DNA of 32,000 nucleotides, taken from assembly GCF_023256255.1 (NCBI RefSeq), contig NZ_JAGDXD010000055.1:37500-69499 (forward strand), written 5' to 3'. The translations under genes and the position numbers were made by a program. The notes beneath the pieces are model-generated. The model saw only the letters and a program-made list of their open reading frames with translations, searched no databases and was not told where the DNA came from. Source of the stretch: Caldivirga sp. GTDB lineage: Archaea > Thermoproteota > Thermoprotei > Thermoproteales > Thermocladiaceae. Each line of letters opens with the position of its first letter. Position 1 is the first letter of the stretch. Of this stretch, positions 484 to 26,513 are shown in pieces.

Positions 484-984
484 TTAAGCACCAATGGCTA
501 CTAGTGCTAAGCCTATGAAAATTAAAACTAGACCAGTTATGAATAAGTATAATGATTCAGGCAGCGCCCCAATTTGAACCTCCCATATGAGGCCATTACC
601 ATAGTACTGGCATACACCATAATTAATTATTGTTACCTTACTGCTACTAATAATTGATGGGGATGATTGACCCCCATTAAGTACTGGTGGTACGTATGAA
701 CCATATGAGAATACTAAGGTTCCATTTAAGGCATACGCGCTTACCCTCATTGATACATGATACATCTTAGTGTAGTTCCTAACCATGCTAACTATAGTTG
801 ATTCATTGGCTTGGCTAACTCCAGTTAAATTATTTATGAACTCTAGACACAATGTTGTTGCATTATGCCTGTTAGATAATGATAGGTACATGTGAGATAA
901 ATATAGTAATACTCCTGCAGTTATAATGGCTACTACACCCATTATTATCATAATTCTCTTAACACGGGCAGGTAACCTAGGCAT
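484..984 (-). CDS. hypothetical membrane protein (N- and C-terminal TM helices, sequon-rich middle)
   Basis: 166-aa ORF. Hydrophobic segments IMIIMGVVAIITAGVLLYL near the N-terminus and LYLFITGLVLIFIGLALVAIGA at the C-terminus. Central ~100 aa carry NAT, NLT, NES, NYT and NGT sequons. No family recognised. Confidence 0.55.
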   Translation of the reverse strand: MPRLPARVKRIMIIMGVVAIITAGVLLYLSHMYLSLSNRHNATTLCLEFINNLTGVSQANESTIVSMVRNYTKMYHVSMRVSAYALNGTLVFSYGSYVPPVLNGGQSSPSIISSSKVTIINYGVCQYYGNGLIWEVQIGALPESLYLFITGLVLIFIGLALVAIGA

Positions 985-1159
985 TGTGAATCCAACTACT
1001 ACACGTTTAAAACCGTTATTCCATATGGCATGAATTATTATAATGAATCACCTCACGTAAGATAACCAATGATTAATAAACACTGTTCCTGCTTTATTTC
1101 TTATAGAATATAGAATACTCGCTGATTCATGCAGTTGATGCCGCCTCATAGTAGTTTAC

Positions 1160-1723
1160 TTAGCTACTTAAACGCGCTACGTAGAGTATGTGGGATACTT
1201 GATCAATAATTAGGTTAAGCCCAGTTTCAACAGCATCAGGTGATCCAGGTAGGCAGACAACCAGTTTATTGTTGATTATTCCTGCTGTTGCCCTACTTAA
1301 CATGGCTGATGCCCCTATTTTCTGGTAACTAATGAATCTAAATAATTCCCCGAAACCCTCAATCTCCTTACTGAATAATGGCCTAACAGTCTCAATAGTT
1401 ACATCACTCTTAGCCAAGCCTGTACCACCTATTAAAACTACAACATCTACATCATCCCTATGAAGTAACTCATTTAATGAACCCTTAATCATGCGTTCAT
1501 CATCACTAACTAGTAGCCTCCCTACAACTGAGTGACCAGAGTTAGTTATCTTTAATGAAGCTAAGTCGCCTGACTCATCCTTATACTGCTTGCCAGCCTT
1601 CATTAACTCATACCTTGACGTACTTACAGTAATTATAAAGAAGTTAACCTTACTTGGCCCCTTCTTTTCATGCTCCATATGAGGTGATGCCGCATTATCC
1701 TTACCCATACTCATAACTTTCAT
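1160..1723 (-). CDS. moaB: molybdenum cofactor biosynthesis protein B (MoaB/MogA family)
   Basis: By eye, close colinear resemblance to E. coli MoaB, e.g. VVLIGGTGLAKSDVTIETVRPLFSKEIEGFGELFRFISYQKIGASAMLSRATAGIINNKLVVCLPGSP against the MoaB GGTG...EGFGE...SRA.AG...PGS pattern. Exact start among several N-terminal Met codons is uncertain. Confidence 0.8.
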   Translation of the reverse strand: MKVMSMGKDNAASPHMEHEKKGPSKVNFFIITVSTSRYELMKAGKQYKDESGDLASLKITNSGHSVVGRLLVSDDERMIKGSLNELLHRDDVDVVVLIGGTGLAKSDVTIETVRPLFSKEIEGFGELFRFISYQKIGASAMLSRATAGIINNKLVVCLPGSPDAVETGLNLIIDQVSHILYVARLSS

Positions 1724-1875: not shown

Positions 1876-4800
1876 TTAACTACGCTTAATACCTCTTAAA
1901 TACTTACCCCTAGTGAAACTGATGCTTCTCCTAATCCTAATAGTACTTAACAGTATTGAATAAGCAGACTTATCACTAATGCTTAACTTCATTATATCCC
2001 TCACCGCGTTAGCCTTGCTTAGCCTTAAAGCCATCTTGAAATTTGCATTACCAATACTTTTCTTAATATACAAGTCAATAAACAATGTAGTCATGTAATC
2101 AAGTTGATTCATTAAGCCGCTTAACCATGCTTCATCATTAGTGTTAGCGATACCCGAGTAGAATCTACTCATTCTTATTAAGTAACGTTCATAGAGTCTC
2201 CTATATGGTGAGGAATTGGGATTAAGCGTTATAGCTACTGTTAGTTCCCTCCTTAGGTTCTCATCCAAGATCCCTCGCTTAATGGTATTATTAACAGCGT
2301 TAGTAGCTGTTGATGGGTCAAGGATCATCAGCATTTCCTTAATTAAAGTTGCAGGATGCAGCCCTAGGCTTGCGGCAACTAAAGCTAAGTCTACGTTACC
2401 CCTACTAAATGCATACTCTACAATAATATTCATTAATATGCTTCTGCGTTTAACATTAATCGTCCCTGCACTTAGATTCCTTAGATAATTCATGAATACT
2501 GAGGATACGTTCGTTGAATCTCTTAATAGGTAGACCGCCAGGTTGCTTATGTTCCTAGCATTAACTAAACCTCTCAGTGGAGTTGATCCATTTAAGTTAC
2601 CGTACTTAAGCCTTATTTTCTCGGCACTTAATCTTACGTATTGCTTAGTTAAATTCTCTTGCTCAATAAGCATTTTCCTTAATTTCCCCATTATTATTCT
2701 ATAGGTTTCCGTAGATACTTTCAATTTCTGCAAAGAATTAACAATGCTCTTAACATGATTGATAACCCATGGCGATGTTAATTCCCTATAAAAACTCATT
2801 AATGCTACTAACCTACTCTTATCAACGCTTACTAACCCAGACTTAACCAACGCCACTATTGCTTCAGCGTCAGGATTCATGGCTAATGACAATAGGGTAA
2901 ACACCATTAAATTATCACTCTTATTAACCCTAAGTCCACTACCTAATTTTACTTCACCACTCACTTTCAATAATCTAGGTATAATATTCTTAGAATGACC
3001 ATGAGTTAAGTAAGTTAGTGCCGTAAGTGCATTCCCCATACTGCTAATCATCCTTAACCTACCCCGGTACTCCACTATACTCCTAAAGAACCAGTACCTA
3101 ACCCTCCTCTGCACTTCCCTTCGGCTTAATAATCCCCTCTCGTAAAGCTCAAAGGTAAGTATTTCATTTCTAATAAGTCTTCTCACCAAGAATTCCCTCA
3201 CCTCAACCCATTGGCTCCACTTATCCCCAAGCAGTATGCCTTCGACTAATTGAATTGAACCAAGGGGCCTAGCTAACAAGTATCTTATTCTAACCCTACT
3301 TATTAACCCTAGACCACGCCTATTACCTGATACTTCCCTCAGCAAGCCTGATACGTAAGGATTACTTCTTGCCTTGAGGTAAATGCCGAATAAGCCATGG
3401 TTACTTAAGTAGTTTAGGTACCTTGGCTTACTGTAGAAGGATAATAACCTACGCATCCCCTGTCTATTAGTTAGATAATTGTGGTAATTCTCATTAATGA
3501 TGCCACGTAAGTCTAGGGTCTGATTCTTGCCTCGCCTAACCCTAATTAAATTAGACATCAGTGATCTTGGGGATTGATTACTGACTAGAAATATGAGGTT
3601 CCTCAGCTCACTAATTAGTCTCATTATAGGAATATTGAGCGGGGTTGATTCACCTACAAGCATTAACAGTGCTTCAAGTAACCCCACTACTGATAGTGGG
3701 TACATTAGCCATGCTAATGCGCTTGGAATTACCGTGAATTTCCTTAATAATGAACCATGAAGCTCATTATACATGCTTTTAAAGTATGCATATAGGTTAC
3801 CTGTATACGCTATTAGATTACCCTCATAGCCCCATGTGCTTAATTTGGAGCCAATAATAGTAATATTACCTCTTACTGTTCCATTACCAATACAGGTCAC
3901 GTTAACTAAGTATTGTCTTAAATCACTTGGTGGATTAGGGCTTATGGGGTTGAATAAACTTTTATTCCTTAACCAAACCTCATCATAGACAAGTGATGAG
4001 TTATAGTAGTCTAATGTATACTTCTCAAACTCATTAAACCTCATGATTAATTCACTGCTAATAACGTTACCATTAATGCTTAACACTTCCTCACTACAGT
4101 TACTTGGCTCCTCTAAGTGAATTCTAACATTACTTGCATACGCCCAGAGTATCATCATTGATTTATTGGTAATTGTTTGGTTAAAACACAGTGTTAAGGC
4201 ATCATCATTCTTAGTGATTAACCAAGACGACGGCTTCTTTACCCAATGCCAAAGTGCCCTTACCTCACCGTTAACAATTAACTCATTAACCATTGGATAC
4301 ACGTTAATGTATATTACTGGAATTGCTGACTCATTACTAATACTCACTGAACTTACTGCAGGAACCTTAATCCAATCTACATACGTAGAGTTCAAGATTA
4401 TTGAACATCCCAACTGATTCCCAATTATTATTGATTCACCATACGATATGAAACCTACGCCGCATATGCTCCCTGTAGTTAAGGTATATGGAGAATTAAT
4501 CAAGTATACGTGAATGACATTACTGTAGTTCACTAAATTAAGGGTTCTATTTATGAATGTAATTAGGTTAATTATATTCACGTTACTGTAACTTAAGTGA
4601 GTTGAAGCATATACTGGTACCATCATTAGGGATAAGCCTACTGCTATTAACGGTACTATTAATGGTCTAGTGCTCTTAATCATTACGAGTGGCGCAAGTA
4701 ATATGATCACTGGTTCATACACCTTAGCGATGATCCATATAACATGAACCATGTGATACATTATATACATTAGTTGAGAATATGAGAACGTAATGTATAG

Positions 4801-5163
4801 TACTTCTGAGGCTAAGTCAATCAACCTTCCAAAAACTAGGTTTAACCCAATATTGCTTAAAATGTAGCCAATGCCAACATTATATATGAATAGGCCTAAA
4901 ATATTCAAAACCATTAATGCAATACTCCTAACGATCATAACTTCGGCTACTGCATTAATAACTGAATTCCAATACTCCTCTAGCCTAATTATGGTATTTA
5001 GGTTACTTCTATTAAATAAATCAATAATCGCAAGGGATAATGATACTATACCTATGAATAAAATTATGTCATTAAAAATAAGCTTATACCCTATTCTCCG
5101 TATTCTATAGGTTATTATTAATGATGCTTCAATAGGCATCATTAGTAGAATTACATTAATCAT
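1876..5163 (-). CDS. giant polytopic membrane protein of unknown function (TM bundle + sequon-rich ectodomain + TM + ~580 aa basic cytoplasmic domain)
   Basis: The track ORF starts at TTG 5181. The first ATG (5163..5161) overlaps the TGA of the upstream gene as ATGA, so 5163 is preferred. Residues ~10-195 hold several long hydrophobic segments. Residues ~196-485 are hydrophilic with 12 N-x-S/T sequons by hand count. One more hydrophobic helix follows (FTVIPSALAWLMYPLSVVGLLEALLMLVG). Residues ~520-1101 are Arg/Leu/Ser/Asn-rich with no hydrophobic helices. No Walker A or catalytic motif recognised. Confidence 0.75.
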   Translation of the reverse strand: MINVILLMMPIEASLIITYRIRRIGYKLIFNDIILFIGIVSLSLAIIDLFNRSNLNTIIRLEEYWNSVINAVAEVMIVRSIALMVLNILGLFIYNVGIGYILSNIGLNLVFGRLIDLASEVLYITFSYSQLMYIMYHMVHVIWIIAKVYEPVIILLAPLVMIKSTRPLIVPLIAVGLSLMMVPVYASTHLSYSNVNIINLITFINRTLNLVNYSNVIHVYLINSPYTLTTGSICGVGFISYGESIIIGNQLGCSIILNSTYVDWIKVPAVSSVSISNESAIPVIYINVYPMVNELIVNGEVRALWHWVKKPSSWLITKNDDALTLCFNQTITNKSMMILWAYASNVRIHLEEPSNCSEEVLSINGNVISSELIMRFNEFEKYTLDYYNSSLVYDEVWLRNKSLFNPISPNPPSDLRQYLVNVTCIGNGTVRGNITIIGSKLSTWGYEGNLIAYTGNLYAYFKSMYNELHGSLLRKFTVIPSALAWLMYPLSVVGLLEALLMLVGESTPLNIPIMRLISELRNLIFLVSNQSPRSLMSNLIRVRRGKNQTLDLRGIINENYHNYLTNRQGMRRLLSFYSKPRYLNYLSNHGLFGIYLKARSNPYVSGLLREVSGNRRGLGLISRVRIRYLLARPLGSIQLVEGILLGDKWSQWVEVREFLVRRLIRNEILTFELYERGLLSRREVQRRVRYWFFRSIVEYRGRLRMISSMGNALTALTYLTHGHSKNIIPRLLKVSGEVKLGSGLRVNKSDNLMVFTLLSLAMNPDAEAIVALVKSGLVSVDKSRLVALMSFYRELTSPWVINHVKSIVNSLQKLKVSTETYRIIMGKLRKMLIEQENLTKQYVRLSAEKIRLKYGNLNGSTPLRGLVNARNISNLAVYLLRDSTNVSSVFMNYLRNLSAGTINVKRRSILMNIIVEYAFSRGNVDLALVAASLGLHPATLIKEMLMILDPSTATNAVNNTIKRGILDENLRRELTVAITLNPNSSPYRRLYERYLIRMSRFYSGIANTNDEAWLSGLMNQLDYMTTLFIDLYIKKSIGNANFKMALRLSKANAVRDIMKLSISDKSAYSILLSTIRIRRSISFTRGKYLRGIKRS

Positions 5164-5543
5164 GGTGCTATGCTTTTCCAAATTTCAATAAATGGACTGA
5201 AGAATACCTTATAGAGTAATTCACTTGCAAAGCTAGCTGGATTAACTATACTTGATCCACTCACGTAATTAGCTATCAATGCAAGTGAGTAAACTGTTAC
5301 ATACAAGCCTACTATGGTTACTATGAACCATTTGAAATTACTGAATAAATCCCATAATGCAGCTGCCCTAGCCCACCCTGTTGGGCCTAGTTTACTCTCA
5401 ATAGCCTTAATCAACACACTTACTACCATTAGCCATAGCGCCAAGCCCCCAATGACGCTTATAACTTTGAAAACATCGCTCATTATAGGTATCACTAATT
5501 CATTTTCAATTTCACTAACTATATCGTAAATCAACTCAATCAT
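5160..5543 (-). CDS. small two-TM membrane protein, translationally coupled to the giant ORF
   Basis: 127-aa ORF with an acidic N-terminus (MIELIYDIVSEIENE). Hydrophobic helices VISVIGGLALWLMVVSVLI and WFIVTIVGLYVTVYSLALIA. Its stop TGA (5162..5160) overlaps ATG 5163..5161 of the downstream gene. Confidence 0.6.
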   Translation of the reverse strand: MIELIYDIVSEIENELVIPIMSDVFKVISVIGGLALWLMVVSVLIKAIESKLGPTGWARAAALWDLFSNFKWFIVTIVGLYVTVYSLALIANYVSGSSIVNPASFASELLYKVFFSPFIEIWKSIAP

Positions 5544-5653
5544 TAAAGAGTAGTTATTCTACATTGCTTATTCCTAAACTATGTAGGGTAATGCTACTAA
5601 ATAATGTACCCTATATTAAATAAATGTTATAAACATATAAGTGTGGAGTAACT
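5544..5653. promoter_or_regulatory. divergent promoter region with 7-bp inverted repeat
   Basis: 110-bp AT-rich spacer between divergent genes. TAGGGTA (5584..5590) and TACCCTA (5607..5613) are separated by 16 nt. The right arm abuts a TATA-like TATATTAAATAAAT about 30-40 nt upstream of ATG 5654. GGAG lies 6 nt before the ATG. Confidence 0.35.
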
Positions 5654-6682
5654 ATGGGGAGTGACAATCCTTCACAGGTAACGTTATATATGCACGCTCC
5701 ATCACTATTCCTTGACTTATACATAGGTTCAAGTCTACTAGCTAATCGTTACATCAATTCTTCAATATCATTAGCATCATTGATTAATGATGAACCCTTC
5801 AAGAAAGCACTCATTAATAATCTGCTTAACGCTATAAGTGAGGAGGAAGTGGGCAATATTATTGGTGATTTAAGGCGTGTTTCCTTAATTTCAATAATAA
5901 ATCCAGTCTATGTGGTTAAGAAGGCTGAAAACACAGTTAATTTGATTAAGAATTATGAGTATACGTATAAGGATGATATTGCCGAATGGTATAGTAGGGT
6001 CACTAACCATAGTAACTTACCCTACAGTAAAATGATCTATTCATTGAAACATACCATAAAGATAACTAGGGGGATGGTTAGGCATTACTTATACAAGAGG
6101 GCGCAGGGCTTGATAAGGAGAAGTACTATTAATTCGCTAATGCTTTACATGTCCGCATTACCCAATGCACTTGTAGAGTATTTGAATATAACCAGTAAAA
6201 GCGACGCAATGGCTGTAATCTTCATTAGTTCCCTTATTAATAGATATAAGGTTAATTACCCCATACACCTAGTATTTAATGTATCAAGGAGAGTACTGGC
6301 TATGAACCCTCAGCTACTGAAGAATGCACTAAGTAACATAATAACTAGTTTACCATCTAAGTCTAGTTACTATAATGCAGTGTTGGCTGAACTGGCGAGA
6401 ATCTACATTTACGACCATGGCTTTCTCGATGATGCTCAAGTTAACTATCTGGCATTTAACCCAGCGATATCTGATGATATATTAAGTGGTCACAGTATTG
6501 AACTCATTAAGGCACTAGGTCCCCTGATTTACGACTACATGTATAAGCTAAGTTTATTATACATAAACAATGACTTGAATTCGCTTCATGAATTATCTAA
6601 GATACTTGGTAATATTAAGGAGAATTTAATTGCAGTGATTTTAAACGAGTGGAGTAGGTTAAGTGATGAATTAACTGTTTAA
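5654..6682 (+). CDS. hypothetical soluble helix-rich protein, divergent from the membrane gene pair
   Basis: 342-aa ORF with no hydrophobic helices. Asn/Leu/Ile/Ser/Tyr-rich, similar in composition to the cytoplasmic domain of the giant protein. No motif recognised. Confidence 0.6.
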   Translation: MGSDNPSQVTLYMHAPSLFLDLYIGSSLLANRYINSSISLASLINDEPFKKALINNLLNAISEEEVGNIIGDLRRVSLISIINPVYVVKKAENTVNLIKNYEYTYKDDIAEWYSRVTNHSNLPYSKMIYSLKHTIKITRGMVRHYLYKRAQGLIRRSTINSLMLYMSALPNALVEYLNITSKSDAMAVIFISSLINRYKVNYPIHLVFNVSRRVLAMNPQLLKNALSNIITSLPSKSSYYNAVLAELARIYIYDHGFLDDAQVNYLAFNPAISDDILSGHSIELIKALGPLIYDYMYKLSLLYINNDLNSLHELSKILGNIKENLIAVILNEWSRLSDELTV

Positions 6683-6747: not shown

Positions 6748-7993
6748 TAATGGTTTCCATGATCTCCATTAATGCCTTTCCATACTCCTTAGTGCCAAGT
6801 GGTGTAACACCCATGTACCTGGCTATATCTTGTGTAACCTTTTTCTGCCTTATAGCCTCAGTAATAGCCTTATCAAGTAAGTTAGCTGCTTCACTCCAAT
6901 TCATGAACCTTAGGAGAAGTTCAATAGCCCTGATTTCACTGGTTGGGTTAGCAACATTCTTACCCGCGTACTTGGGTGCTGTTCCATGCATTGCCTCAAC
7001 CATTACTGCTGTGTCACCGACATTAGCAGCCCCAATCATACCAACATTACCCATTAATGATGCTGCTAGTTCACTTATGTAATCACCATTAACGTTTGGG
7101 GCTAGGACCACGTCATAGGATTCAGGTCTAGTGACAAGTTGGGCAAACATGTTATCAGCCATCCTATCATTCACAAGTATCTTTCCAGCTGGTACCTTAC
7201 CACCGTAAAGCTTATTGGCCTCATCCTCAGTTATAATGTAATCTCTGAACTCCTTTAAGGCGACTTCATAGGCCCATTCCCTGAAAGCACCCTCCGTGTA
7301 CTTCATTACATTACCCTTATGCATTATGGTTACTGACCTCCTCTTATTATTTAACGCAAACCTAAAGGCAAACCTGGCAACCCTCTGGGTCCTCCAACGG
7401 CTTATCGGCTTAATACCAATTCCGCAGTCCTCATCAACCTCAACCTTAAGTTCCTCCCTAAGGAACTTCCTTAACTTAGCCGCTTCAGGGCTATCCCAAG
7501 TCCACTCAAGCCCCTTATATAAGTCATCAGTGTTCTCCCTGACTATAACCCAATCAATCCTCTCAGGATTCTTCAATGGTGATTCAATACCCTGAACATA
7601 CTTAATAGGCCTAACATTGGCGTAGGTATCCAGTAGGAGCCTAATCGCCACGTTTATAGACCTCCAACCACCGCCAACTGGGGTTTCCAGCGGGCCCTTT
7701 AACACTACCCTATACTTCTGAAGGGCATCAATGGTCTCTTGAGGTAACCTACTACCGGTAAGCTTCTCAGCCTTCTCACCGGCGTAAACCTCCATCCACT
7801 TTATTTGTCTTGATGAACCGTAGGCTAGTTCAACCGCCTTATTAGCAACCTCCATGGCTACACTAACTATCTCTGGTCCTATTCCATCACCAAGTATGTA
7901 GAGGACTATAGGCTTATTTGGAACCTTTTCAAACACGGCATTCCTTATCACTATTGGTTCCCCATCCTCAGGTGGTTTATACTGAATAGGCAT
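6743..7993 (-). CDS. icd: isocitrate dehydrogenase (NADP-type, prokaryotic homodimeric family)
   Basis: ~416 aa with beta-decarboxylating dehydrogenase hallmarks: GDGIGPEI near the N-terminus, VLKGPLETPVGGGWRSINVAIR, IVRENTDDLY, NVNGDYISELAA, EAMHGTAPKYAGKNVANP. The track start is TTG at 7996; ATG at 7993 is preferred. Confidence 0.9.
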   Translation of the reverse strand: MPIQYKPPEDGEPIVIRNAVFEKVPNKPIVLYILGDGIGPEIVSVAMEVANKAVELAYGSSRQIKWMEVYAGEKAEKLTGSRLPQETIDALQKYRVVLKGPLETPVGGGWRSINVAIRLLLDTYANVRPIKYVQGIESPLKNPERIDWVIVRENTDDLYKGLEWTWDSPEAAKLRKFLREELKVEVDEDCGIGIKPISRWRTQRVARFAFRFALNNKRRSVTIMHKGNVMKYTEGAFREWAYEVALKEFRDYIITEDEANKLYGGKVPAGKILVNDRMADNMFAQLVTRPESYDVVLAPNVNGDYISELAASLMGNVGMIGAANVGDTAVMVEAMHGTAPKYAGKNVANPTSEIRAIELLLRFMNWSEAANLLDKAITEAIRQKKVTQDIARYMGVTPLGTKEYGKALMEIMETIK

Positions 7994-8076
7994 CAACCCT
8001 AGCTCTAAGTCTAATGTTTTAAGTCTTACTCTGGATTAGGGCATGTTTAAAATCATTAAATGAAATAGCACCTAGG

Positions 8077-8808
8077 TTACTTAACCACTAGAAGAATTGG
8101 ATAATGGTCGGAGCCCTCAATATTGAGGATATCCGCATCAATAACCCTCTCAATTAATTCACTTGAAACAAAACAGTAATCTATCCTCATTGCCATACTT
8201 TTATTCCTATAACTCCTCCACGAGTACTTAACCTCATTAGGGTGGATTAACCTAAATGTATCAATGAATCCCTTCCTAATGAATTCACTTAACCACTGTC
8301 TCTCTGGTGGTGATAAGCCTGGTTGATTCTCATTCCAGAAGCTTGAGTCCTGCCTAGCATATACTGCGTTAAAGTCACCGCAAATGATTACTGGTTTCCT
8401 TTGTCTTAAGTTTAATACGAAACTCTCAATACTCCTATTGAAAGCTAACTTAAATGGGAGCCTATTAAGGTTATCACCAGCCCTTGGGAAGTATGCGTTA
8501 ATTAAGTAGAAGTCAGAGAGCTCAATTGATATAACCCTACCCTCATCATCAAAGTCCCTTACCCCAATTCCCTTAATCACATTAATAGGCTTAACTCTAC
8601 TTAATGTTAACACTCCACTGTATCCTTTCCTCACCGCTGGGAATCCATAAATCTCGAAACCCATAGATAGTAAGTCTAAAGGTAAGTCGCTTGATTTGAT
8701 TTCCTGAAGTAAGGCAACGTCGAAGTCGTTAATCACCCTTAACGCACCCTTCCTTGATAGGCTCCTAACACCATTAACATTCCATGATATTAACTTCACA
8801 TGAAACAC
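8077..8808 (-). CDS. xth: exodeoxyribonuclease III / AP endonuclease (EEP superfamily)
   Basis: N-terminal ISWNVNGVRS, LLQEIK, internal ICGDFN and C-terminal GSDHYPILLVV match the ExoIII/APE1 pattern. Length 243 aa. Confidence 0.85.
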   Translation of the reverse strand: MFHVKLISWNVNGVRSLSRKGALRVINDFDVALLQEIKSSDLPLDLLSMGFEIYGFPAVRKGYSGVLTLSRVKPINVIKGIGVRDFDDEGRVISIELSDFYLINAYFPRAGDNLNRLPFKLAFNRSIESFVLNLRQRKPVIICGDFNAVYARQDSSFWNENQPGLSPPERQWLSEFIRKGFIDTFRLIHPNEVKYSWRSYRNKSMAMRIDYCFVSSELIERVIDADILNIEGSDHYPILLVVK

Positions 8809-8975
8809 CCCGGAATATTAAGTTAAGGCTCTTTTTGTGCACTACTGTTGAAATTAAACAATGTAATTGAGGAATTAATTCCACTTAGGGGCATACTCTT
8901 TGTAATTGATGGTAAAGCAGATGGAGATCCTTAAGTGAAAAAGGTATTTATCCCAGGGCTCAGTCCCATGACTTA

Positions 8976-10016
8976 ATGTACTATAGGTTCCCAACTACAA
9001 GACCAAGGAGGCTTAGGAGTAGTAGAATTATTAGGAACATGGTTTCTGAGACCTCATTATCCTCCAGTAATCTTGTTTGGCCATTGTTCATTAAGGATGA
9101 GGGACCTATTGAGCAGATAAACTCAATGCCTGGGCAGTACAGGTATCCTATTGGGGACGAGCTAATTAAGGCAGTTGACGATGCTGTGGAATCTGGGGTT
9201 AGGGCATTTTTACTATTTGGTGTAACTAAGCATAAGGATGCCGTAGGCTCCTTAGCATACGATAAGAAGGGACCAGTACCCATGGCGTTAAAAATGCTTA
9301 AGGATACCTTTGGCGACTCAATAATACTCATGACTGATGTATGCCTATGCGACTATACTGAGCATGGGCACTGTGGTGTAGTTGAATTTAAGGATCCGCC
9401 TGAACTTCAATACGCTAAGCAGCCTAAATACGTTGTTGATAATGATGCTACAATAGGCATTTACGCTAAGATTGCAGTCAACTACGCTGAAGCTGGGGCT
9501 GATGTAGTAGCCCCTTCAGGTATGATGGACGGGCAGGTTAAGGCTATAAGGGAGGCACTTGACAATAATGGGTTCAGTGACGTAGTGATAATGAGCTATA
9601 GCTCCAAGTACGCAAGCACGTTCTATGGCCCCTTCAGGGAGGCTGCTGATAGTGCACCTAAGTTTGGTGATAGACGCAGTTACCAGATGGATCCCAGGAA
9701 CGCTTATGAGGCTATTAAGGAGGTTTCAATGGATCTTGAGGAGGGGGCTGACATAGTTATGGTTAAGCCAGCAATGCCTTACCTTGACGTAATCAGGCTA
9801 GTTAAGCAAAACTTTCCTGAAGTACCCTTAGCCGCCTATCAAGTGAGTGGTGAATACTCAATGATTAAGGCCGCTGCATTAAATGGTTGGCTTAATGAGA
9901 AGATGGCTGTGCTAGAGTCATTAATAGCTATTAGGAGGGCTGGCGCCAACGTGATAATAACCTACTACGCTAAGGACGCTTCAAGGTGGATTACTGAAAT
10001 TGAGAACAACTTCTAG
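8976..10016 (+). CDS. hemB: porphobilinogen synthase (delta-aminolevulinic acid dehydratase), Zn/Cys-rich type
   Basis: RPRRLR near the N-terminus, Cys-rich metal site DVCLCDYTEHGHCG, PSGMMDGQV, VMVKPA and SGEYSMIKAA, all typical of HemB. 346 aa. Confidence 0.9.
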   Translation: MYYRFPTTRPRRLRSSRIIRNMVSETSLSSSNLVWPLFIKDEGPIEQINSMPGQYRYPIGDELIKAVDDAVESGVRAFLLFGVTKHKDAVGSLAYDKKGPVPMALKMLKDTFGDSIILMTDVCLCDYTEHGHCGVVEFKDPPELQYAKQPKYVVDNDATIGIYAKIAVNYAEAGADVVAPSGMMDGQVKAIREALDNNGFSDVVIMSYSSKYASTFYGPFREAADSAPKFGDRRSYQMDPRNAYEAIKEVSMDLEEGADIVMVKPAMPYLDVIRLVKQNFPEVPLAAYQVSGEYSMIKAAALNGWLNEKMAVLESLIAIRRAGANVIITYYAKDASRWITEIENNF

Positions 10017-10029
10017 CTATTATACTTAA

Positions 10030-10863
10030 CTATAAGGTAATAGTATCAGTAACCTTCTTACTATTAACATCAATTACCTTAAGTATGTTCCCTGATAGTA
10101 ACATTACCTTCGGTTTACTTAAACTATAAGGGCCTGATGATGATGTGAATAATGAGATTACTTTGCCATCATGGAACTTCCAGTATCCCTCAGTTATGTA
10201 ACTATGGCCCCTCACTATGAGGTTAATGTTATTCCTTTTAATGAAATCCCTTGTAACATCAGGACCAAATAGGTAGGCGCCAATTCCCCTAGGGCTATCT
10301 ACAAATCCCTTAACCTCATCACTTGGGTCATTCCAAAGAATTTGAAAGGCCATTGGGTTACTTGGCTCATCATCATGTTTACTTAACTTAAGTATATCAT
10401 TAATGGTTTCTAGGCCCTTAGCTAAACCACCATGTAGGAGAAGTATCTTATCATTCAATAAAGCCGCGTAAGGTAATGCTGGGAATAATTCATGCATTAT
10501 CGTATTCAATAAGCCTTGGCCAAGTAGTGGTAATGCTTCATCCATGAAACCATAGACCTCATTCATAACATATGATTCATGATTACCCCTTAACGGTATC
10601 ATGCTTCCCTGCAGGAATAACTTGAGGACACCCTCAAGGGTCTCAACCTGATATTCCCCCCTATCAACATAATCCCCTAAACCTATGTAGAACCAGTCGC
10701 CGGGTGGGTAATCGTTAATCACCTTCTCTAGGGAATCTAAGTCACCGTGTAGGTCACCCAATATCACCACCTTATCTGAATTAATCTTAACTAAGGTATC
10801 TAATTCACTTAACCTATCTAATGCCTTATCCACTAGTTCTTTAAAATGACTCCTATTAGTCAT
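10030..10863 (-). CDS. PPP-family Ser/Thr protein phosphatase (archaeal PP1-like metallophosphoesterase)
   Basis: Contains the three PPP signature motifs in order: GDLHGD (GDxHG), GDYVDRG (GDxVDRG), RGNHE (GNHE). 277 aa. Confidence 0.8.
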   Translation of the reverse strand: MTNRSHFKELVDKALDRLSELDTLVKINSDKVVILGDLHGDLDSLEKVINDYPPGDWFYIGLGDYVDRGEYQVETLEGVLKLFLQGSMIPLRGNHESYVMNEVYGFMDEALPLLGQGLLNTIMHELFPALPYAALLNDKILLLHGGLAKGLETINDILKLSKHDDEPSNPMAFQILWNDPSDEVKGFVDSPRGIGAYLFGPDVTRDFIKRNNINLIVRGHSYITEGYWKFHDGKVISLFTSSSGPYSLSKPKVMLLSGNILKVIDVNSKKVTDTITL

Positions 10864-10900
10864 TGTTACTTAGCCTTAATTCCTAATTACTTTAATAAGA

Positions 10901-11647
10901 TTACGCGCTTGGTCTCTGAGGCAGCCCCTCGTTCTTAGCCTCCTCAATTAACTTCTTCAGTTCCTCAGCGGTTAGTTTCCTGAAGGACTTGGTCTTAGCA
11001 TCAATAACTCCAATTTCAAATCTGTCAGACTCAAGGCTCTCTGCCACTAGGCTTAGTGACTTAATGGTTAACTTAACGCATGAATTAATATCCATCTCAT
11101 ATTTATAGTTCTTCTCAAGGTATTCAAGTATTAAAGATGAGCCACTTCCTAATGCTGTTGCGTAGTAGCCAAAGTATATTCCACTTGGGTCTGTTTGGTA
11201 AAGCCTTGGACCATTCTTATCAACACCCCCTATTATTAATGCTATACCGAAGGGTCTAACACCACCATGTTGAGTGTAGGCTTGCTCCAGGTCACTAATC
11301 CTCTTAGTTATGTACTCGACATCAGCCTGCTCATCATAGAGAAGCCTATATACTTGGGCCTGTTCCCTAGCGTAATCTATCAGGATCCTAGCGTCTGAGA
11401 GTAATCCTGCTGAAGCAGCACCAATATGGGTATCAATCATATACACCTTCTCTATTGAATTAAGATCTATTAATGGCCCCAGTTTCCTTTTTTCAGCAGC
11501 AAGTACAACACCATCAGAACATTTTAAGCCAACAGTAGCCCACCCCCTCTTAACTGCCTCACCAGCATACCTAACCTGGTATAATTCACCCTCTGGGCTA
11601 AATATCGTTATAGCCCGATCATATCCAGCCATCTGTGGACTAAACAT
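10901..11647 (-). CDS. psmA: proteasome subunit alpha
   Basis: N-terminus YDRAITIFSPEGELYQVRYAGEAVKRG is the canonical alpha-subunit signature. 248 aa. Confidence 0.9.
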   Translation of the reverse strand: MFSPQMAGYDRAITIFSPEGELYQVRYAGEAVKRGWATVGLKCSDGVVLAAEKRKLGPLIDLNSIEKVYMIDTHIGAASAGLLSDARILIDYAREQAQVYRLLYDEQADVEYITKRISDLEQAYTQHGGVRPFGIALIIGGVDKNGPRLYQTDPSGIYFGYYATALGSGSSLILEYLEKNYKYEMDINSCVKLTIKSLSLVAESLESDRFEIGVIDAKTKSFRKLTAEELKKLIEEAKNEGLPQRPSA

Positions 11648-11841
11648 ACTGAAAACCTAGTTGCCCTGTGTTTTTAACCTTTAACTAATAGTTCACAGCT
11701 ATCCTAATCTAGGTCACCATCAGTAAGCCCATTAGTATGGATTAATATGCCTTAGAATGGCTTAGATAGTAACTTTAATGGGCTTATGAACATTAATGAA
11801 TAATGAACGCTAAGCACAAATGATAAAGTTAATTAGGTAGC

Positions 11842-12576
11842 TTACTTTCTAACTATTAAATATCTAGTAAGTACAAGCAGTGCAGCTGCCGTTAGAATCA
11901 GTGATACTATTGATAAAATCAGTGATAGGTTAATTAACTCTGCATTATAGCCTACAATGCTAACTTTATTGACTGTAACCGTTGCCGTAACTGTGGTTAA
12001 TAGGGTGCTATACGATGTTGAGTAAATGACACTACTCACTGTACTAACCGTGGTTACTGTTTCAGTTATAATTGAGGTTTCAGTTACGGTGATTGTCTTG
12101 TTAATTAGTCTTGGGATTAATGACGACGTATTCGATACCGTTACGGTATATGAACTAGTACGTAACTGAGGCTCAACAGTTATGTTCACAGTCCTTTCAT
12201 CAACAAGTACCCAGGATCCATTAAGTAGATAGTAAAGGCTTACGTTCAACCTATTAACACCAACATGGGGTAAGGATACAAGAAACGTGAACCTAAGTAT
12301 ACCTGGTGCAGTACTTATTGGTAAACTTCCAAGCGTTAAGGATCCATTACTTAATACTACCATTATTGTTGACATGCATGAGTTAGGGCTTGTTATAAGG
12401 CATGGAGGAGCATACTCAACTATCACCGTTATATTAGTGGGTTGCCCTACCTCCACTGGGCTAGTGTAGTTAACTTCAATTATCTTAGTATAATTCTCAT
12501 AGTTACCCTGAGCCAATACGCATACTGATACAGCCAATACTGCAATCACCACACCCACTAGCACTCTCTCATCCAT
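11842..12576 (-). CDS. cell-surface glycoprotein-like protein with Thr/Ser/Val-rich stalk and C-terminal TM anchor
   Basis: N-terminal hydrophobic signal (VLVGVVIAVLAVSVCVLA). Sequons NYT, NIT, NGS, NVS, NIT, NTS and NKT. Low-complexity TVTETSIITETVTTVSTVSSVIYSTSYSTLLTTVTATVTV. C-terminal helix LSLILSIVSLILTAAALLVL followed by basic residues. Confidence 0.6.
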   Translation of the reverse strand: MDERVLVGVVIAVLAVSVCVLAQGNYENYTKIIEVNYTSPVEVGQPTNITVIVEYAPPCLITSPNSCMSTIMVVLSNGSLTLGSLPISTAPGILRFTFLVSLPHVGVNRLNVSLYYLLNGSWVLVDERTVNITVEPQLRTSSYTVTVSNTSSLIPRLINKTITVTETSIITETVTTVSTVSSVIYSTSYSTLLTTVTATVTVNKVSIVGYNAELINLSLILSIVSLILTAAALLVLTRYLIVRK

Positions 12577-12654
12577 AACCTAAGCCCAGTTAAGCTAATT
12601 ATTATGCGTTTCGAGGACACTAAATTAATTAAGGTTTAAGTAAGGGGCTAAAGT

Positions 12655-13710
12655 ATGAAGTACGTTAGGTTCGGTAACAGTGGAATAAAGGTGTCTGAAA
12701 TATGCCTTGGTTTATGGCATCTCCCTCCTTCTAGGGTTAAGGATGAGTATGGTGTCTATAAGGTTGATGAGGAGGAGGCTATTAGGATAATTAAGAGGGC
12801 TATTGACTTAGGAATCAACTTCATAGACACAGCCAATATATATCATGGAACTATGCAGGGACCGGACCCTATCCATGCTGGTAATGCTGAGAGAATACTG
12901 GGTAAGGCAATAAGAGGTTATGATAGGGAATCATTAGTTATAACTACTAAGGTTAGGGGACGGATGGCTCCTTGGCCTAATGGGGAGGGGTTGTCTAGGA
13001 AGCACATTAGGTGGCAGATTAAGGAATCATTAAGGAGACTAGGGACAAGCTACGTAGACTTATACTTAATGCATAGGCCTGATCCATCTACACCAATTGA
13101 GGAAACCTTGGACACATTAAAGGACTTAGTTAGCCAGGGCCTTGTTCACTATGTTGGGGAAAGTTACTTCCACCCTGATGACATACGGTATATTGTTGAG
13201 TACTCTAGGAGCATTCACTTACCTTTCATAGCCATGCAGGAGCCTTATAACTTAATTGAACGCGACATAGAGAAGGATAAAGTACCGTTGGCCAGTAAGT
13301 ACGGTTTAGGCATAATGGCCTATATACCTCTTGCTCAGGGGGTGTTAACAGGCAAGTATCTTAACGGCATACCTGAGATGTCTAGGGCAAGTTACGTTGA
13401 TGAAATACGGTGGAGGTACTTAACTCCAGAGACGCTGAAAGCAATGAGGGAGTTCCATGAAATAGCAAAGGAATTAGGGGTCACTGACGCTCAATTAGCA
13501 TTAGCGTGGATTTTGAAGAAATCAGAGGAGATGGGGGTTACCATAGTACCAATAATAGGTGCCACAAGTATAACTCAACTTGAGGATAATGTAGGGAGCG
13601 TTAATGTTACATTAAGTAGCGATGTGATGAAAAGATTAGATGAAATCTCCAAGATGGCTAGGGTTAATTGGGAAATCAAGTATGATAGGATAATTAAATT
13701 AACCCAGTAG
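12655..13710 (+). CDS. aldo/keto reductase family oxidoreductase
   Basis: N-terminal GNSGIKVSEICLG, INFIDTANIY, LGKAI, VITTK, YVDLYLMHRPD and C-terminal IIGATSITQLEDN follow the AKR family pattern. 351 aa. Confidence 0.85.
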   Translation: MKYVRFGNSGIKVSEICLGLWHLPPSRVKDEYGVYKVDEEEAIRIIKRAIDLGINFIDTANIYHGTMQGPDPIHAGNAERILGKAIRGYDRESLVITTKVRGRMAPWPNGEGLSRKHIRWQIKESLRRLGTSYVDLYLMHRPDPSTPIEETLDTLKDLVSQGLVHYVGESYFHPDDIRYIVEYSRSIHLPFIAMQEPYNLIERDIEKDKVPLASKYGLGIMAYIPLAQGVLTGKYLNGIPEMSRASYVDEIRWRYLTPETLKAMREFHEIAKELGVTDAQLALAWILKKSEEMGVTIVPIIGATSITQLEDNVGSVNVTLSSDVMKRLDEISKMARVNWEIKYDRIIKLTQ

Positions 13711-18433: not shown

Positions 18434-19609
18434 TCACTGAGCAACCCCAATTGTGTTACCAACACCCACTATTATGACCTCATCATTAGGCTCTGAGTAG
18501 GAGTCAATCACCTTACCCAGCCTCTCAACAACCTTATTAACGGCCTCATCTATGACCTTCGTCATTGCGTTAAGTGCCTCAGGCATGCTCATTTTCACTA
18601 AAATTGCGTAAATAGGTGTATCGTACTTGGTTGCAATCGACTCTATGTTAAACTTCTCAACCCCAATACCACCCATTGCTACACCAAGCCCCTCCGCTAT
18701 TGAACCACTTTCCTCGCCTTCCAGCTTTAAGGCAGCATCAATGGTTATCATTAACCTTGGCCTAGCATTAATGTTCTCGTAAATATACCTTATCGCATCA
18801 TCTAAATGCCCCACTGTTCCACCAGGTCCCTCGGCCTTAACCAAGTATATTTTCCTACCCTTAAAGTTGCATGATGCTATGTAAGTGTCCTTAACTGAAT
18901 CACTTACTGGCTTCAAATCACTGCATAGGTTCTTAAATCTGAAGACTGTTAATGGGCCCGCTGAATCCCCAATTGGCTGCCCCTTTAGGAAAACTGGTAC
19001 TGAACCATTTAATGCATCAATCTCCTCCTTCAGTAATGGTAATATCGCAGCCAATTGAATAAGCAGGTAGTAACTCTTGTACTTCATGGCTAACCTATAA
19101 TAATGGTCAATGACCTTATATATGAAGTTCAACTCCCTTAATACATCAACAACATTAGTGAAGTTCTGAATAATAGGCTTGCTACTACTTATAGCAGGTA
19201 TGAGCCTTGAGACATCCTTCTCAAGTCTATCATTATAGGAGTTAATAAGTGCCTTATACTTCCTAACTAAGCCCTCAGGCTCCATACTGGTTGGTTCTAT
19301 TATAACCATTTCCATCAAGTCCCTTATCCTACCCTCTATTAGCCGTTTATCCTCATTAACCTTACTTGATATGAAGTCTAATACCTGCGTAATATTATTA
19401 TTCATTGAGAGTCTTAGCTTATTTAGGAAACTACTGACCTGTGATTGATACCTCCATAGTTGGAATGTCTCGTAAAACCATGGAAAGACCCCGAACCAAA
19501 GTATTAGAAGAATAATATTATATAGTAGATATTGTTGAGTACTTTGACTACCCATGGGGCTTACTTGAAGCGCTTGAAGTATGCCTAAGGCGACCAACGT
19601 ATACACCAC
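18434..19609 (-). CDS. membrane-anchored protein of unknown function (helical N-domain + Gly-rich alpha/beta C-domain)
   Basis: 391-codon ORF from GTG 19609; the first ATG is at 19555. N-terminal TM helix (YLLYNIILLILWFGVFPWFY), then a helical region to ~200. The C-terminal part carries glycine-rich loops GQPIGDSAGP, AEGPGGTVGH and GVAMGGIGVEK. Size and architecture recall an archaea-specific DUF (I think DUF1512), but I cannot verify membership. Confidence 0.65.
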   Translation of the reverse strand: MVYTLVALGILQALQVSPMGSQSTQQYLLYNIILLILWFGVFPWFYETFQLWRYQSQVSSFLNKLRLSMNNNITQVLDFISSKVNEDKRLIEGRIRDLMEMVIIEPTSMEPEGLVRKYKALINSYNDRLEKDVSRLIPAISSSKPIIQNFTNVVDVLRELNFIYKVIDHYYRLAMKYKSYYLLIQLAAILPLLKEEIDALNGSVPVFLKGQPIGDSAGPLTVFRFKNLCSDLKPVSDSVKDTYIASCNFKGRKIYLVKAEGPGGTVGHLDDAIRYIYENINARPRLMITIDAALKLEGEESGSIAEGLGVAMGGIGVEKFNIESIATKYDTPIYAILVKMSMPEALNAMTKVIDEAVNKVVERLGKVIDSYSEPNDEVIIVGVGNTIGVAQ

Positions 19610-26153: not shown

Positions 26154-26513
26154 TCATGGTTTCCAGGTTAAAGCCATTATTGAGCCTATAAGCAGAAGAA
26201 GGAACCCTATTATGAAGCCACCCATTAGGGCTGTGAAGAAGCTTATTATTGATATGATTAAGAGGACTGCACCTATTGCGTGAACCATGCTCTCATTCGT
26301 TAATCCTCCCAGCTTAGCGGATAAAACTAGGGCTACCACACCAATTATGATTCCTATGATGGATAATATGACTATGGGTATGCCTAGTAAACCAATAAAT
26401 GGTATGAAGGTAAACACCGCTGAGAACACGAATTCAATAATCGCACTGACTAGGATTATTACACTACCCGCCAATGAGAATACGTACGCTCCTCGTGGTG
26501 TCTTAGACTGCAT
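26154..26513 (-). CDS. small polytopic membrane protein
   Basis: 119-aa ORF, almost entirely hydrophobic, with about four helix-length segments. No family recognised. Confidence 0.55.
   Translation of the reverse strand: MQSKTPRGAYVFSLAGSVIILVSAIIEFVFSAVFTFIPFIGLLGIPIVILSIIGIIIGVVALVLSAKLGGLTNESMVHAIGAVLLIISIISFFTALMGGFIIGFLLLLIGSIMALTWKP

Follow-up and report, generated by a model that had tools for sequence, protein, structure and literature searches.

The 32-kb stretch of a Caldivirga sp. genome analysed here, called the window below, carries a block of three adjacent genes between a moaB-like gene and icd, which were recognised by Pfam as MoCF_biosynth and Iso_dh. All positions are counted in this window. 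The block encodes a giant membrane protein of 1095 amino acids (aa), a membrane protein of 127 aa, and, in the opposite direction, a soluble helical protein of 342 aa. This anatomy and its coordinates had been proposed in an initial annotation, and they agree with the list of open reading frames (ORFs) and their translations; the flanks and the inverted repeat in the 110-bp spacer between the divergent genes had also been described correctly. The features of the block are as follows:

1876-5181, (-): ORF of the giant protein as listed, from a TTG; the actual start is the ATG at 5163, which gives 1095 aa
1876-5163, (-): gene of the giant protein, 1095 aa; polytopic, in the position of tedA (VirB6/CedA-like channel), ATGA-coupled to the pilin gene
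5160-5543, (-): tedC-like gene, 127 aa; three-helix membrane protein, very probable homologue of the pilin TedC
5544-5653, no strand: divergent promoter spacer, 110 bp, with a conserved palindrome between two TATA-like boxes; candidate shared operator
5654-6682, (+): gene of the 342-aa soluble helical protein, divergent across the 110-bp spacer

The start of the giant gene was set at the ATG at 5163 because the orthologous proteins begin at the corresponding Met. The gene coding for the 127-aa protein ends with ...CCATGA, and its TGA overlaps the first ATG of the giant gene (ATGA overlap, 5160-5163), as had been read before. Searches of Pfam, NCBIfam, PHROG, and PADLOC gave no family match for any of the three proteins. 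The earlier statement that the trio holds no ATPase, nuclease, or glycosyltransferase motif was borne out as well.

The identity of the 127-aa protein was approached through the PDB. A phmmer search of 177,635 PDB sequences gave a single match, 8dft_A ('Pilin protein'), which was full-length and collinear with an E-value of 0.13. With more diverse family profiles, the E-value fell from 0.13 to 0.07 and then to 0.019, and a 37%-identical family member (P0019) independently gave the same single match. The 8DFT entry is the cryo-electron microscopy structure of the conjugative-type pilus of TedC from Pyrobaculum calidifontis (PMC9905601, data availability and Table S1; PMC11823120). TedC itself (Pcal_0765) is a VirB2-like conjugative-type pilin (PMC9905601). 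The Smith-Waterman score against the 8DFT sequence was 84, as compared with 35 ± 6 for block-preserving shuffles (z 7.4-8.9; 0 of 3000 reached the score), and other members of the pilin family were independently significant in the same kind of test. A second TedC orthologue was taken from L016, one Pyrobaculum-type Ted locus found in a metagenome scan, which carries a DUF87/HerA/TrwB-like ATPase gene, the TedC precursor gene, and the first 219 residues of TedA. The score against this orthologue was 103 (z 9.8, 0 of 3000 shuffles), and a hidden Markov model (HMM) of the Caldivirga family picked the TedC ORF from the six-frame translation of L016 with 29 bits. The AlphaFold2 (AF2) model of the 127-aa protein, with a predicted local distance difference test score (pLDDT) of 70, consists of helices at residues 2-52, 56-95, and 102-125. 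When this model was compared with 350,542 chains in Foldseek, 8dft_A was the only confident match (probability 1.00, TM-score 0.63/0.69, root-mean-square deviation 2.8 Å, 103 columns), and the runner-up had a probability of 0.16. CedA1 (8DFU) was matched neither in the PDB sequence searches nor in Foldseek, and no match to the TedC sequence was obtained in a scan of a genome collection. Because the PDB sequence match, the z-scores from composition- and block-preserving shuffles, the HMM match in L016, and the Foldseek match agree, we conclude that the 127-aa protein is very probably a homologue of the TedC-family, VirB2-like pilins.

These data bear directly on the explanation that the trio is a truly orphan complex of the membrane which serves envelope anchoring or signalling. 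Its small protein would then be a generic helical-hairpin subunit with a convergent resemblance to TedC. A helical hairpin is a simple fold, the HMMER E-values against the PDB are marginal when taken alone (0.019-0.13), and curated families contain none of the three proteins. However, the similarity to two TedC orthologues, collinear over the full length, withstands block shuffling (z 7-10, 0 of 3000), TedC was the sole PDB sequence match for several independent queries and the sole confident Foldseek match, and the published system shows the same gene order and occurs in the order to which the organism belongs (PMC9905601). This explanation is largely refuted already, and we regard it as very unlikely. 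The initial annotation had described the trio as an orphan without a recognisable family and as unlike pilus, secretion, or conjugation (Ced-type) systems. Both statements are contradicted by the TedC-like pilin and by the tedC-tedA gene order, although a confident match to a characterised family was found for the 127-aa protein only, and the other two proteins have none. Its suggestion of envelope anchoring or signalling may still hold for the additional domains of the giant protein, although it is no longer the best frame for the unit.

TedC is synthesised with a Sec signal peptide, which is cleaved by signal peptidase I, and the Caldivirga pilin differs in this trait. Upstream extension of the 127-aa ORF is blocked by a stop 5 codons ahead of the Met, and the encoded N-terminus is acidic (MIELIYDIVSEIENE...); from these two features it follows that a Sec signal peptide is absent. 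The TedC precursor of L016 carries the published signal-peptide site ...LALA/QA (the slash marks the cleavage). Since the alignment to this precursor begins at residue 35, past the cleavage site, the 127-aa protein corresponds to mature TedC. The 8DFT chain begins at precursor residue 38, and the published Ser64 is the chain residue S27. A class III signal motif, a trait of archaeal type IV pilins, was not found in the 127-aa protein. In L016, two tandem polytopic HExxH proteins are encoded at 3380-5415 between the DUF87 ATPase gene and tedC, one of them M48-peptidase-like in Pfam. Both might be considered for a role in pilin processing; similar HExxH proteins are not adjacent to the signal-peptide-less Caldivirga pilin.

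The giant protein can be divided into four parts:

4594-5163, (-), aa 1-190: about six hydrophobic helices, bundled at the N-terminus; predicted from hydropathy and alignment
3733-4593, (-), aa ~191-477: beta-rich, with sequons and Cys; presumed extracellular
3652-3732, (-), aa ~478-504: last transmembrane helix, predicted from hydropathy
1879-3651, (-), aa ~505-1095: strongly basic, all-helical, presumed cytoplasmic, from charge count and AF2

The same layout (hydrophobic bundle, sequon-rich domain of ~290 aa, transmembrane helix, basic C-terminus) had been outlined in the initial annotation, and the hydropathy, sequon, and charge counts are in agreement with it. Hydrophobic blocks were found at residues 1-19, 24-53, 67-103, 138-190 (at least two helices), and 478-504, and the AF2 secondary structure shows seven N-terminal helices and one further. 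The protein is predicted from hydropathy, which gave both count and topology, to have about seven transmembrane segments. The motifs G-[RK]-x-[IY]-D, S-Q-L, and R-P-L of the N-terminal part are conserved in an alignment of seven diverse members. The domain of ~290 aa (aa ~200-485) contains 12 N-x-S/T sequons and 5 Cys, and its presumed extracellular location is suggested by the sequons and the positive-inside rule. The region ~191-477 was modelled by AF2 as beta strands, with pLDDT of 70-80 only at aa ~310-370 and ~420-445. The C-terminal ~590 aa contain 64 Arg and 29 Lys, which gives a net charge of about +54, and several invariant blocks, for example LYERG-LS-R-AQRR-RYWF-RS-EYR-RLR. The invariant segment DLALVAASLGLHPATLIKEML (aa ~925-945) falls in the best-modelled C-terminal part (AF2 pLDDT 65-75). 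The segment resembles a helix-turn-helix signature, but such a motif was unsupported, as the isolated segment had no match to a Pfam helix-turn-helix family. The Foldseek matches of the model of the giant protein (beta-sandwich, glycosidase) were set aside as meaningless at a pLDDT of 37.

The family of the giant protein is very narrow, with 5 relatives in a word-indexed search and 4 clusters among 1.84 billion representative proteins in an exhaustive HMMER search. Its most distant member, P0022 (1211 aa), is encoded in contig L009, which has a G+C content of 56%. With a start ahead of the called one, the ORF upstream of it at 5012-5287 (-) would encode two transmembrane helices and a soluble domain. 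At its end, the same contig has a partial convergent ORF, 626-1330 (+), which contains ...GGAFDLGKALQEF... and shows only marginal resemblance to TedC (z 2.3-3.7).

In all Caldivirga-like loci, the giant gene lies directly downstream of the tedC-like gene, with the ATGA overlap. The Ted system of Thermoproteales comprises the TedC pilin, the TedA channel, and the TedB and TedD ATPases (Beltran et al. 2023, PMC9905601; PDB 8DFT). Caldivirga is listed among the genera with TedC homologues, and across all five Thermoproteales genera, among them Caldivirga, tedC is followed immediately downstream by a gene for the seven-transmembrane CedA/VirB6-like TedA (PMC9905601). By its position and its predicted segments, about seven in number, the giant protein takes the place of TedA and matches the published tedC-tedA order. 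Position and topology also incline us, by a modest degree, to take it for a true TedA/VirB6 homologue. The pair of pilin and large-protein genes could be traced down to a pilin identity of 39% in L006, an uncultured Thermoproteaceae metagenome-assembled genome (MAG), GCA_964575955.1, which is the most distant relative whose pilin is still recognisable. There, the tedC-like gene (129 aa) lies within an overlapping operon of genes for 235-aa, 129-aa, and 825-aa proteins (7743-12864). The 825-aa protein has the same architecture as the giant protein, that is, a transmembrane bundle, a sequon/Cys-rich domain of ~280 aa, one transmembrane helix, and a basic helical tail, and it matched the giant family in hhalign with an E-value of 0.0024 over 364 collinear columns.

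Ted and Ced are regarded as a domesticated type IV secretion-like apparatus, which is thought to exchange chromosomal DNA among Thermoproteota. Our preferred reading is that the block is a Ted/Ced-type pilin-platform module in a divergent Caldivirga version, for which we estimate a probability of about two in three. The odds that its output is DNA exchange, a role assigned by analogy, appear even. This kind of system has already been published and reported in Caldivirga, and the locus is not a new class. The signal-less pilin, the expanded protein in the TedA position, the 342-aa partner, the operator, and the lack of a linked ATPase gene appear to be undescribed in PMC9905601 and PMC11823120, Fig. 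1g of PMC9905601 aside.

Several results weigh against this reading. The PDB E-values of the pilin are the marginal ones given above, and the Sec signal peptide expected of a TedC protein is absent. Neither seven diverse members of the giant family (TrbL/VirB6 included in the search) nor the isolated C-terminal segments gave any Pfam match at E<=10, a PDB sequence search with the giant protein found no match, and the AF2 model of the whole protein (pLDDT 37) was unusable. Pairwise comparison of the giant protein with the 219 N-terminal residues of TedA from L016 gave z-scores from -0.7 to 2.2, and the shallow profile of its family gave an hhalign E-value of 0.67 against the same fragment. A pilin-like N-terminal region has been reported for CedA/CedA1 and VirB6/VirB2; residues 38-125 of the giant protein aligned with residues 26-123 of the pilin at an hhalign E-value of 0.021 with a probability of 2%, a weak signal that the pairwise Smith-Waterman z-score of -0.2 did not bear out. 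No clear tedC-like gene was found upstream of P0022 in L009. In the rest of the window, 24 large ORFs were scanned against Pfam, and none encodes a VirB4/HerA/ParA/Rad50-type ATPase. The DNA-import function of Ted is itself an extrapolation from Ced. For Caldivirga, to our knowledge, neither the formation of a pilus nor the transfer of DNA has ever been demonstrated. As to the comparison with TedA, its power was low, since it drew on a single partial TedA, on no CedA sequence, and on a profile of little depth. Between TedA and CedA, the identity is only 13%, and HHpred was needed to detect their relationship (PMC9905601). Because of this divergence and of the small amount of TedA sequence, the negative result for the giant protein and TedA is a weak one.

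The conservation of the block was examined in related contigs. The nearest protein matches of the trio are 95-98% identical and come from a Caldivirga sp. MAG. The trio is intact in every Caldivirga-like contig inspected (L001, L005, L002-L004, which belong to Caldivirga sp. UBA161, L008, L010, L012, and L013, from Caldivirga sp. MU80), everywhere with a divergent 342-aa gene and with an overlap between the small and the giant gene. The linkage of the three genes, which the initial annotation had put forward for checking, is thus conserved in all of these contigs. Adjacency of the pilin and giant genes is kept in L001, L002, L006, L008, L010, and L013. Full-length orthologues always co-occur, with the lowest identities being 49% for the giant protein, 55% for the 342-aa protein, and 80% for the 127-aa protein. 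The small protein is by far the most conserved of the trio, with 80% identity where the giant protein retains only 49%. In the comparison with UBA161, the ratio of nonsynonymous to synonymous substitution rates (dN/dS) was 0.16 for the giant gene, 0.14 (0.135) for the 342-aa gene, and 0.04 for the 127-aa gene, as compared with 0.11 for moaB. This indicates that all three are real genes under purifying selection. The strong constraint on the pilin (dN/dS 0.04) fits a polymer subunit.

The same data allowed us to weigh another explanation, that the block is what remains of a conjugative plasmid or virus after its integration, an AT-rich island of foreign origin with genes for a plasmid-type pilin and a mating pore. 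VirB2/VirB6-like genes are typical of conjugative elements, and the G+C content of the trio is 35-37%, as compared with 40.2% for the whole window and 45-46% for icd and EF-1alpha. The initial annotation had pointed to this drop from spot counts of ~30% and ~45%; the trio is indeed lower in G+C, but the gap is smaller than those counts implied. The low value results from a composition rich in Ile, Leu, Asn, and Tyr. Selection on the trio is similar to that on moaB, and the window contains no tRNA, integrase, or other mobile-element gene. Across Caldivirga species, the moaB side of the block is retained, and the icd side is retained in part of these species and differs between lineages. No match was found in 72,556 plasmids or in viral contigs. 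Given the lack of plasmid or viral matches and of a tRNA, and the conserved chromosomal flank, a mobile-element origin was rejected as extremely improbable.

ATPases were sought beyond the trio. In some Thermoproteales, Ted components are encoded at distal loci, and the Ced ATPase is also encoded distally (PMC9905601). In UBA161 (L002, 20321-20845), a DUF87 gene of HerA/VirB4 type lies ~9.5 kb beyond the giant gene, a position outside the window. The C-terminal 174 residues of its product are 27% identical to the DUF87 ATPase of L016 (E 8e-5), which amounts to generic superfamily similarity only; the protein may be either TedB or TedD, or else a HerA without relation to Ted. In L006, the operon is divergent from a gene for a 464-aa ATPase of PF00437 (T2SSE; VirB11/PilB/FlaI family), an adjacency seen in one lineage only. 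A VirB11-like component for Ced or Ted is not mentioned in PMC9905601 or PMC11823120. No T2SSE or T2SSF Pfam match (PilB/FlaI or FlaJ/TadC type) was obtained in the trio or in the rest of the window.

Proteins of the CedA/VirB6 type are about 3-4 times smaller than the giant protein. Such a difference raises the possibility that the block is a conjugative-type pilus machine distinct from Ted, with a TedC-related pilin and a lineage-specific all-in-one platform (channel, ectodomain across the S-layer, and cytoplasmic domain for docking or DNA binding) that is not TedA/VirB6; its pilus may serve adhesion or cell-cell contact instead of DNA import, maybe with a different ATPase. The lack of detectable similarity of the giant protein to TedA, VirB6, or any family would agree with it, as would the pilin without a signal peptide, the unique conserved 342-aa partner, the lack of a VirB4-type gene nearby, and the L006 operon divergent from a PF00437 ATPase that is not of the VirB4 type. 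On the other hand, Ced and Ted components diverge beyond recognition by BLAST (PMC9905601; compare the 13% of TedA and CedA), the negative similarity test rests on one partial TedA and has low power, the PF00437 adjacency is confined to a single lineage, and the gene order and number of transmembrane segments match tedC-tedA. We judge a distinct machine to be rather unlikely. A further step, that the giant protein is a new self-contained platform combining a membrane channel, a glycosylated ectodomain across the S-layer, and a basic cytoplasmic domain that binds DNA or ATPases, and forms with the signal-less pilin and the 342-aa partner an undescribed minimal conjugative-type pilus machine, is more doubtful still; in one lineage, such a machine may be paired with a VirB11/PilB-family instead of a VirB4-family ATPase.

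We compared the block with known systems, starting with Ted. The organisms belong to the same order, Thermoproteales, both sequence and predicted fold make the small protein a TedC homologue, and the pilin gene lies directly upstream of a polytopic gene with about seven predicted transmembrane segments. The Caldivirga version differs in the lack of a Sec signal peptide, in the size of its tedA-position protein (1095 aa with a sequon-rich ectodomain of ~290 aa and a basic domain of ~590 aa), which has no detectable similarity to the N-terminus of Pyrobaculum-type TedA, in the lack of VirB4/HerA/ParA/Rad50 neighbours in the window, and in the presence of a conserved divergent 342-aa gene and a candidate palindromic operator. 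The Ced system, which occurs in Sulfolobales and Desulfurococcales, consists of CedA, CedA1, CedA2, and CedB (PDB 8DFU). As in Ced, a gene for a small unprocessed helical-hairpin pilin is in an operon with a gene for a polytopic membrane protein, the pilin resembles CedA1 in having no signal peptide, and the ATPase would be encoded elsewhere in the genome. Unlike Ced, the block has no second small pilin-like gene (CedA2), and the giant protein is far larger than CedA.

The logic of a pilin and a polytopic inner-membrane platform is shared with VirB2/VirB6 of bacterial type IV secretion systems. Extended VirB6 proteins, for example TraG of the F plasmid, have large hydrophilic C-terminal domains, as the giant protein does. 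In contrast to the bacterial systems, the block gives no sequence or Pfam (TrbL/VirB6) signal, contains no VirB3/4/7-11 or relaxase genes, and is chromosomal and flanked by housekeeping genes rather than carried on a mobile element. It also differs from archaeal type IV pilus/type IV filament (TFF) systems, as neither a class III signal peptide, nor a PilB/FlaI ATPase, nor a FlaJ/TadC platform was found in the trio or the window.

On the Ted/Ced reading, the block could work as follows. The pilin would be inserted in the membrane as a helical hairpin in the absence of signal-peptide cleavage, as reported for CedA1, and would then be extracted along with lipids to form, by polymerisation, a narrow pilus of the conjugative type. 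The bundle of roughly seven helices of the giant protein would be the membrane platform or channel for this polymerisation, and its two extra domains might supply functions that belong to separate proteins in bacterial systems. The putatively glycosylated ectodomain could support or guide the base of the pilus across the pseudo-periplasm and S-layer, and the basic cytoplasmic domain could be the docking site of the motor ATPases and/or bind DNA as it enters. These ATPases, probably TedB/TedD-like and of the VirB4/HerA type, would be encoded outside the window. The 342-aa protein may act as a cytoplasmic accessory, co-regulated with the operon via the palindromic operator in the shared promoter region. 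The output would be intercellular DNA exchange, if the analogy with Ced and Ted holds.

Orthologues of the 342-aa protein adjoin the pilin-giant pair in every Caldivirga-like locus inspected. No relatives were detected beyond the Caldivirga-like clade, no family or PDB match was obtained, and no counterpart was found in the Pyrobaculum-type Ted locus L016, in L006, or in L009. The best PDB match, a helix pair of FliS, was insignificant (E 0.08) and was discarded. The protein is a putative lineage-specific cytoplasmic accessory. The inverted repeat of the spacer, ATGTAGGGTA/TACCCTATAT (TAGGGTA-N16-TACCCTA), has its arms at 5581-5590 and 5607-5616 and is placed between the TATA-like elements of both transcription units. 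In six orthologous spacers, ACCCTAC is invariant and the sequence between the arms is variable. The palindrome of L001 and MU80 carries a symmetric double change, from T..A to C..G. These features of the sequence make the palindrome a candidate shared operator for an unknown dimeric regulator. One of its arms overlaps the TATA-like box located ~30 nt upstream of the 342-aa ATG, and this distance suggests a leaderless mRNA. A scan for sigma-70 promoters and terminators was uninformative, as it is not applicable to archaea.

All three proteins are called 'hypothetical' in public databases, and the link to Ted/Ced gives them a testable role. The presumed ectodomain and the +54 domain of the giant protein are concrete candidates for functions still missing from the picture of the archaeal apparatus, namely S-layer crossing, DNA binding, and recruitment of ATPases; the conserved 342-aa partner is a further one. 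The TedC relative without a signal peptide blurs the reported difference between Ted and Ced in pilin processing. Through the conserved palindrome, the regulation of the block could be approached, such as an induction by DNA damage.

The other ORFs of the window are housekeeping in character and include those for the proteasome alpha subunit, ALAD, an exo/endonuclease-phosphatase family protein, EF-1alpha, ribosomal proteins, IlvD, and an MFS transporter, among others. Downstream of moaB, at 484-984 (-), a 166-aa ORF has hydrophobic helices at its N- and C-terminus and 5 N-glycosylation sequons. It has no family match, and its position is kept in UBA161 and MU80; in UBA161, its counterpart is followed by a conserved 402-aa protein, also without a Pfam match. 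Two conserved families of unknown function are represented elsewhere in the window, by a full-length DUF1512 protein of 391 aa at 18434-19609 (-) and by a DUF6114 membrane protein of 119 aa at 26154-26513 (-).

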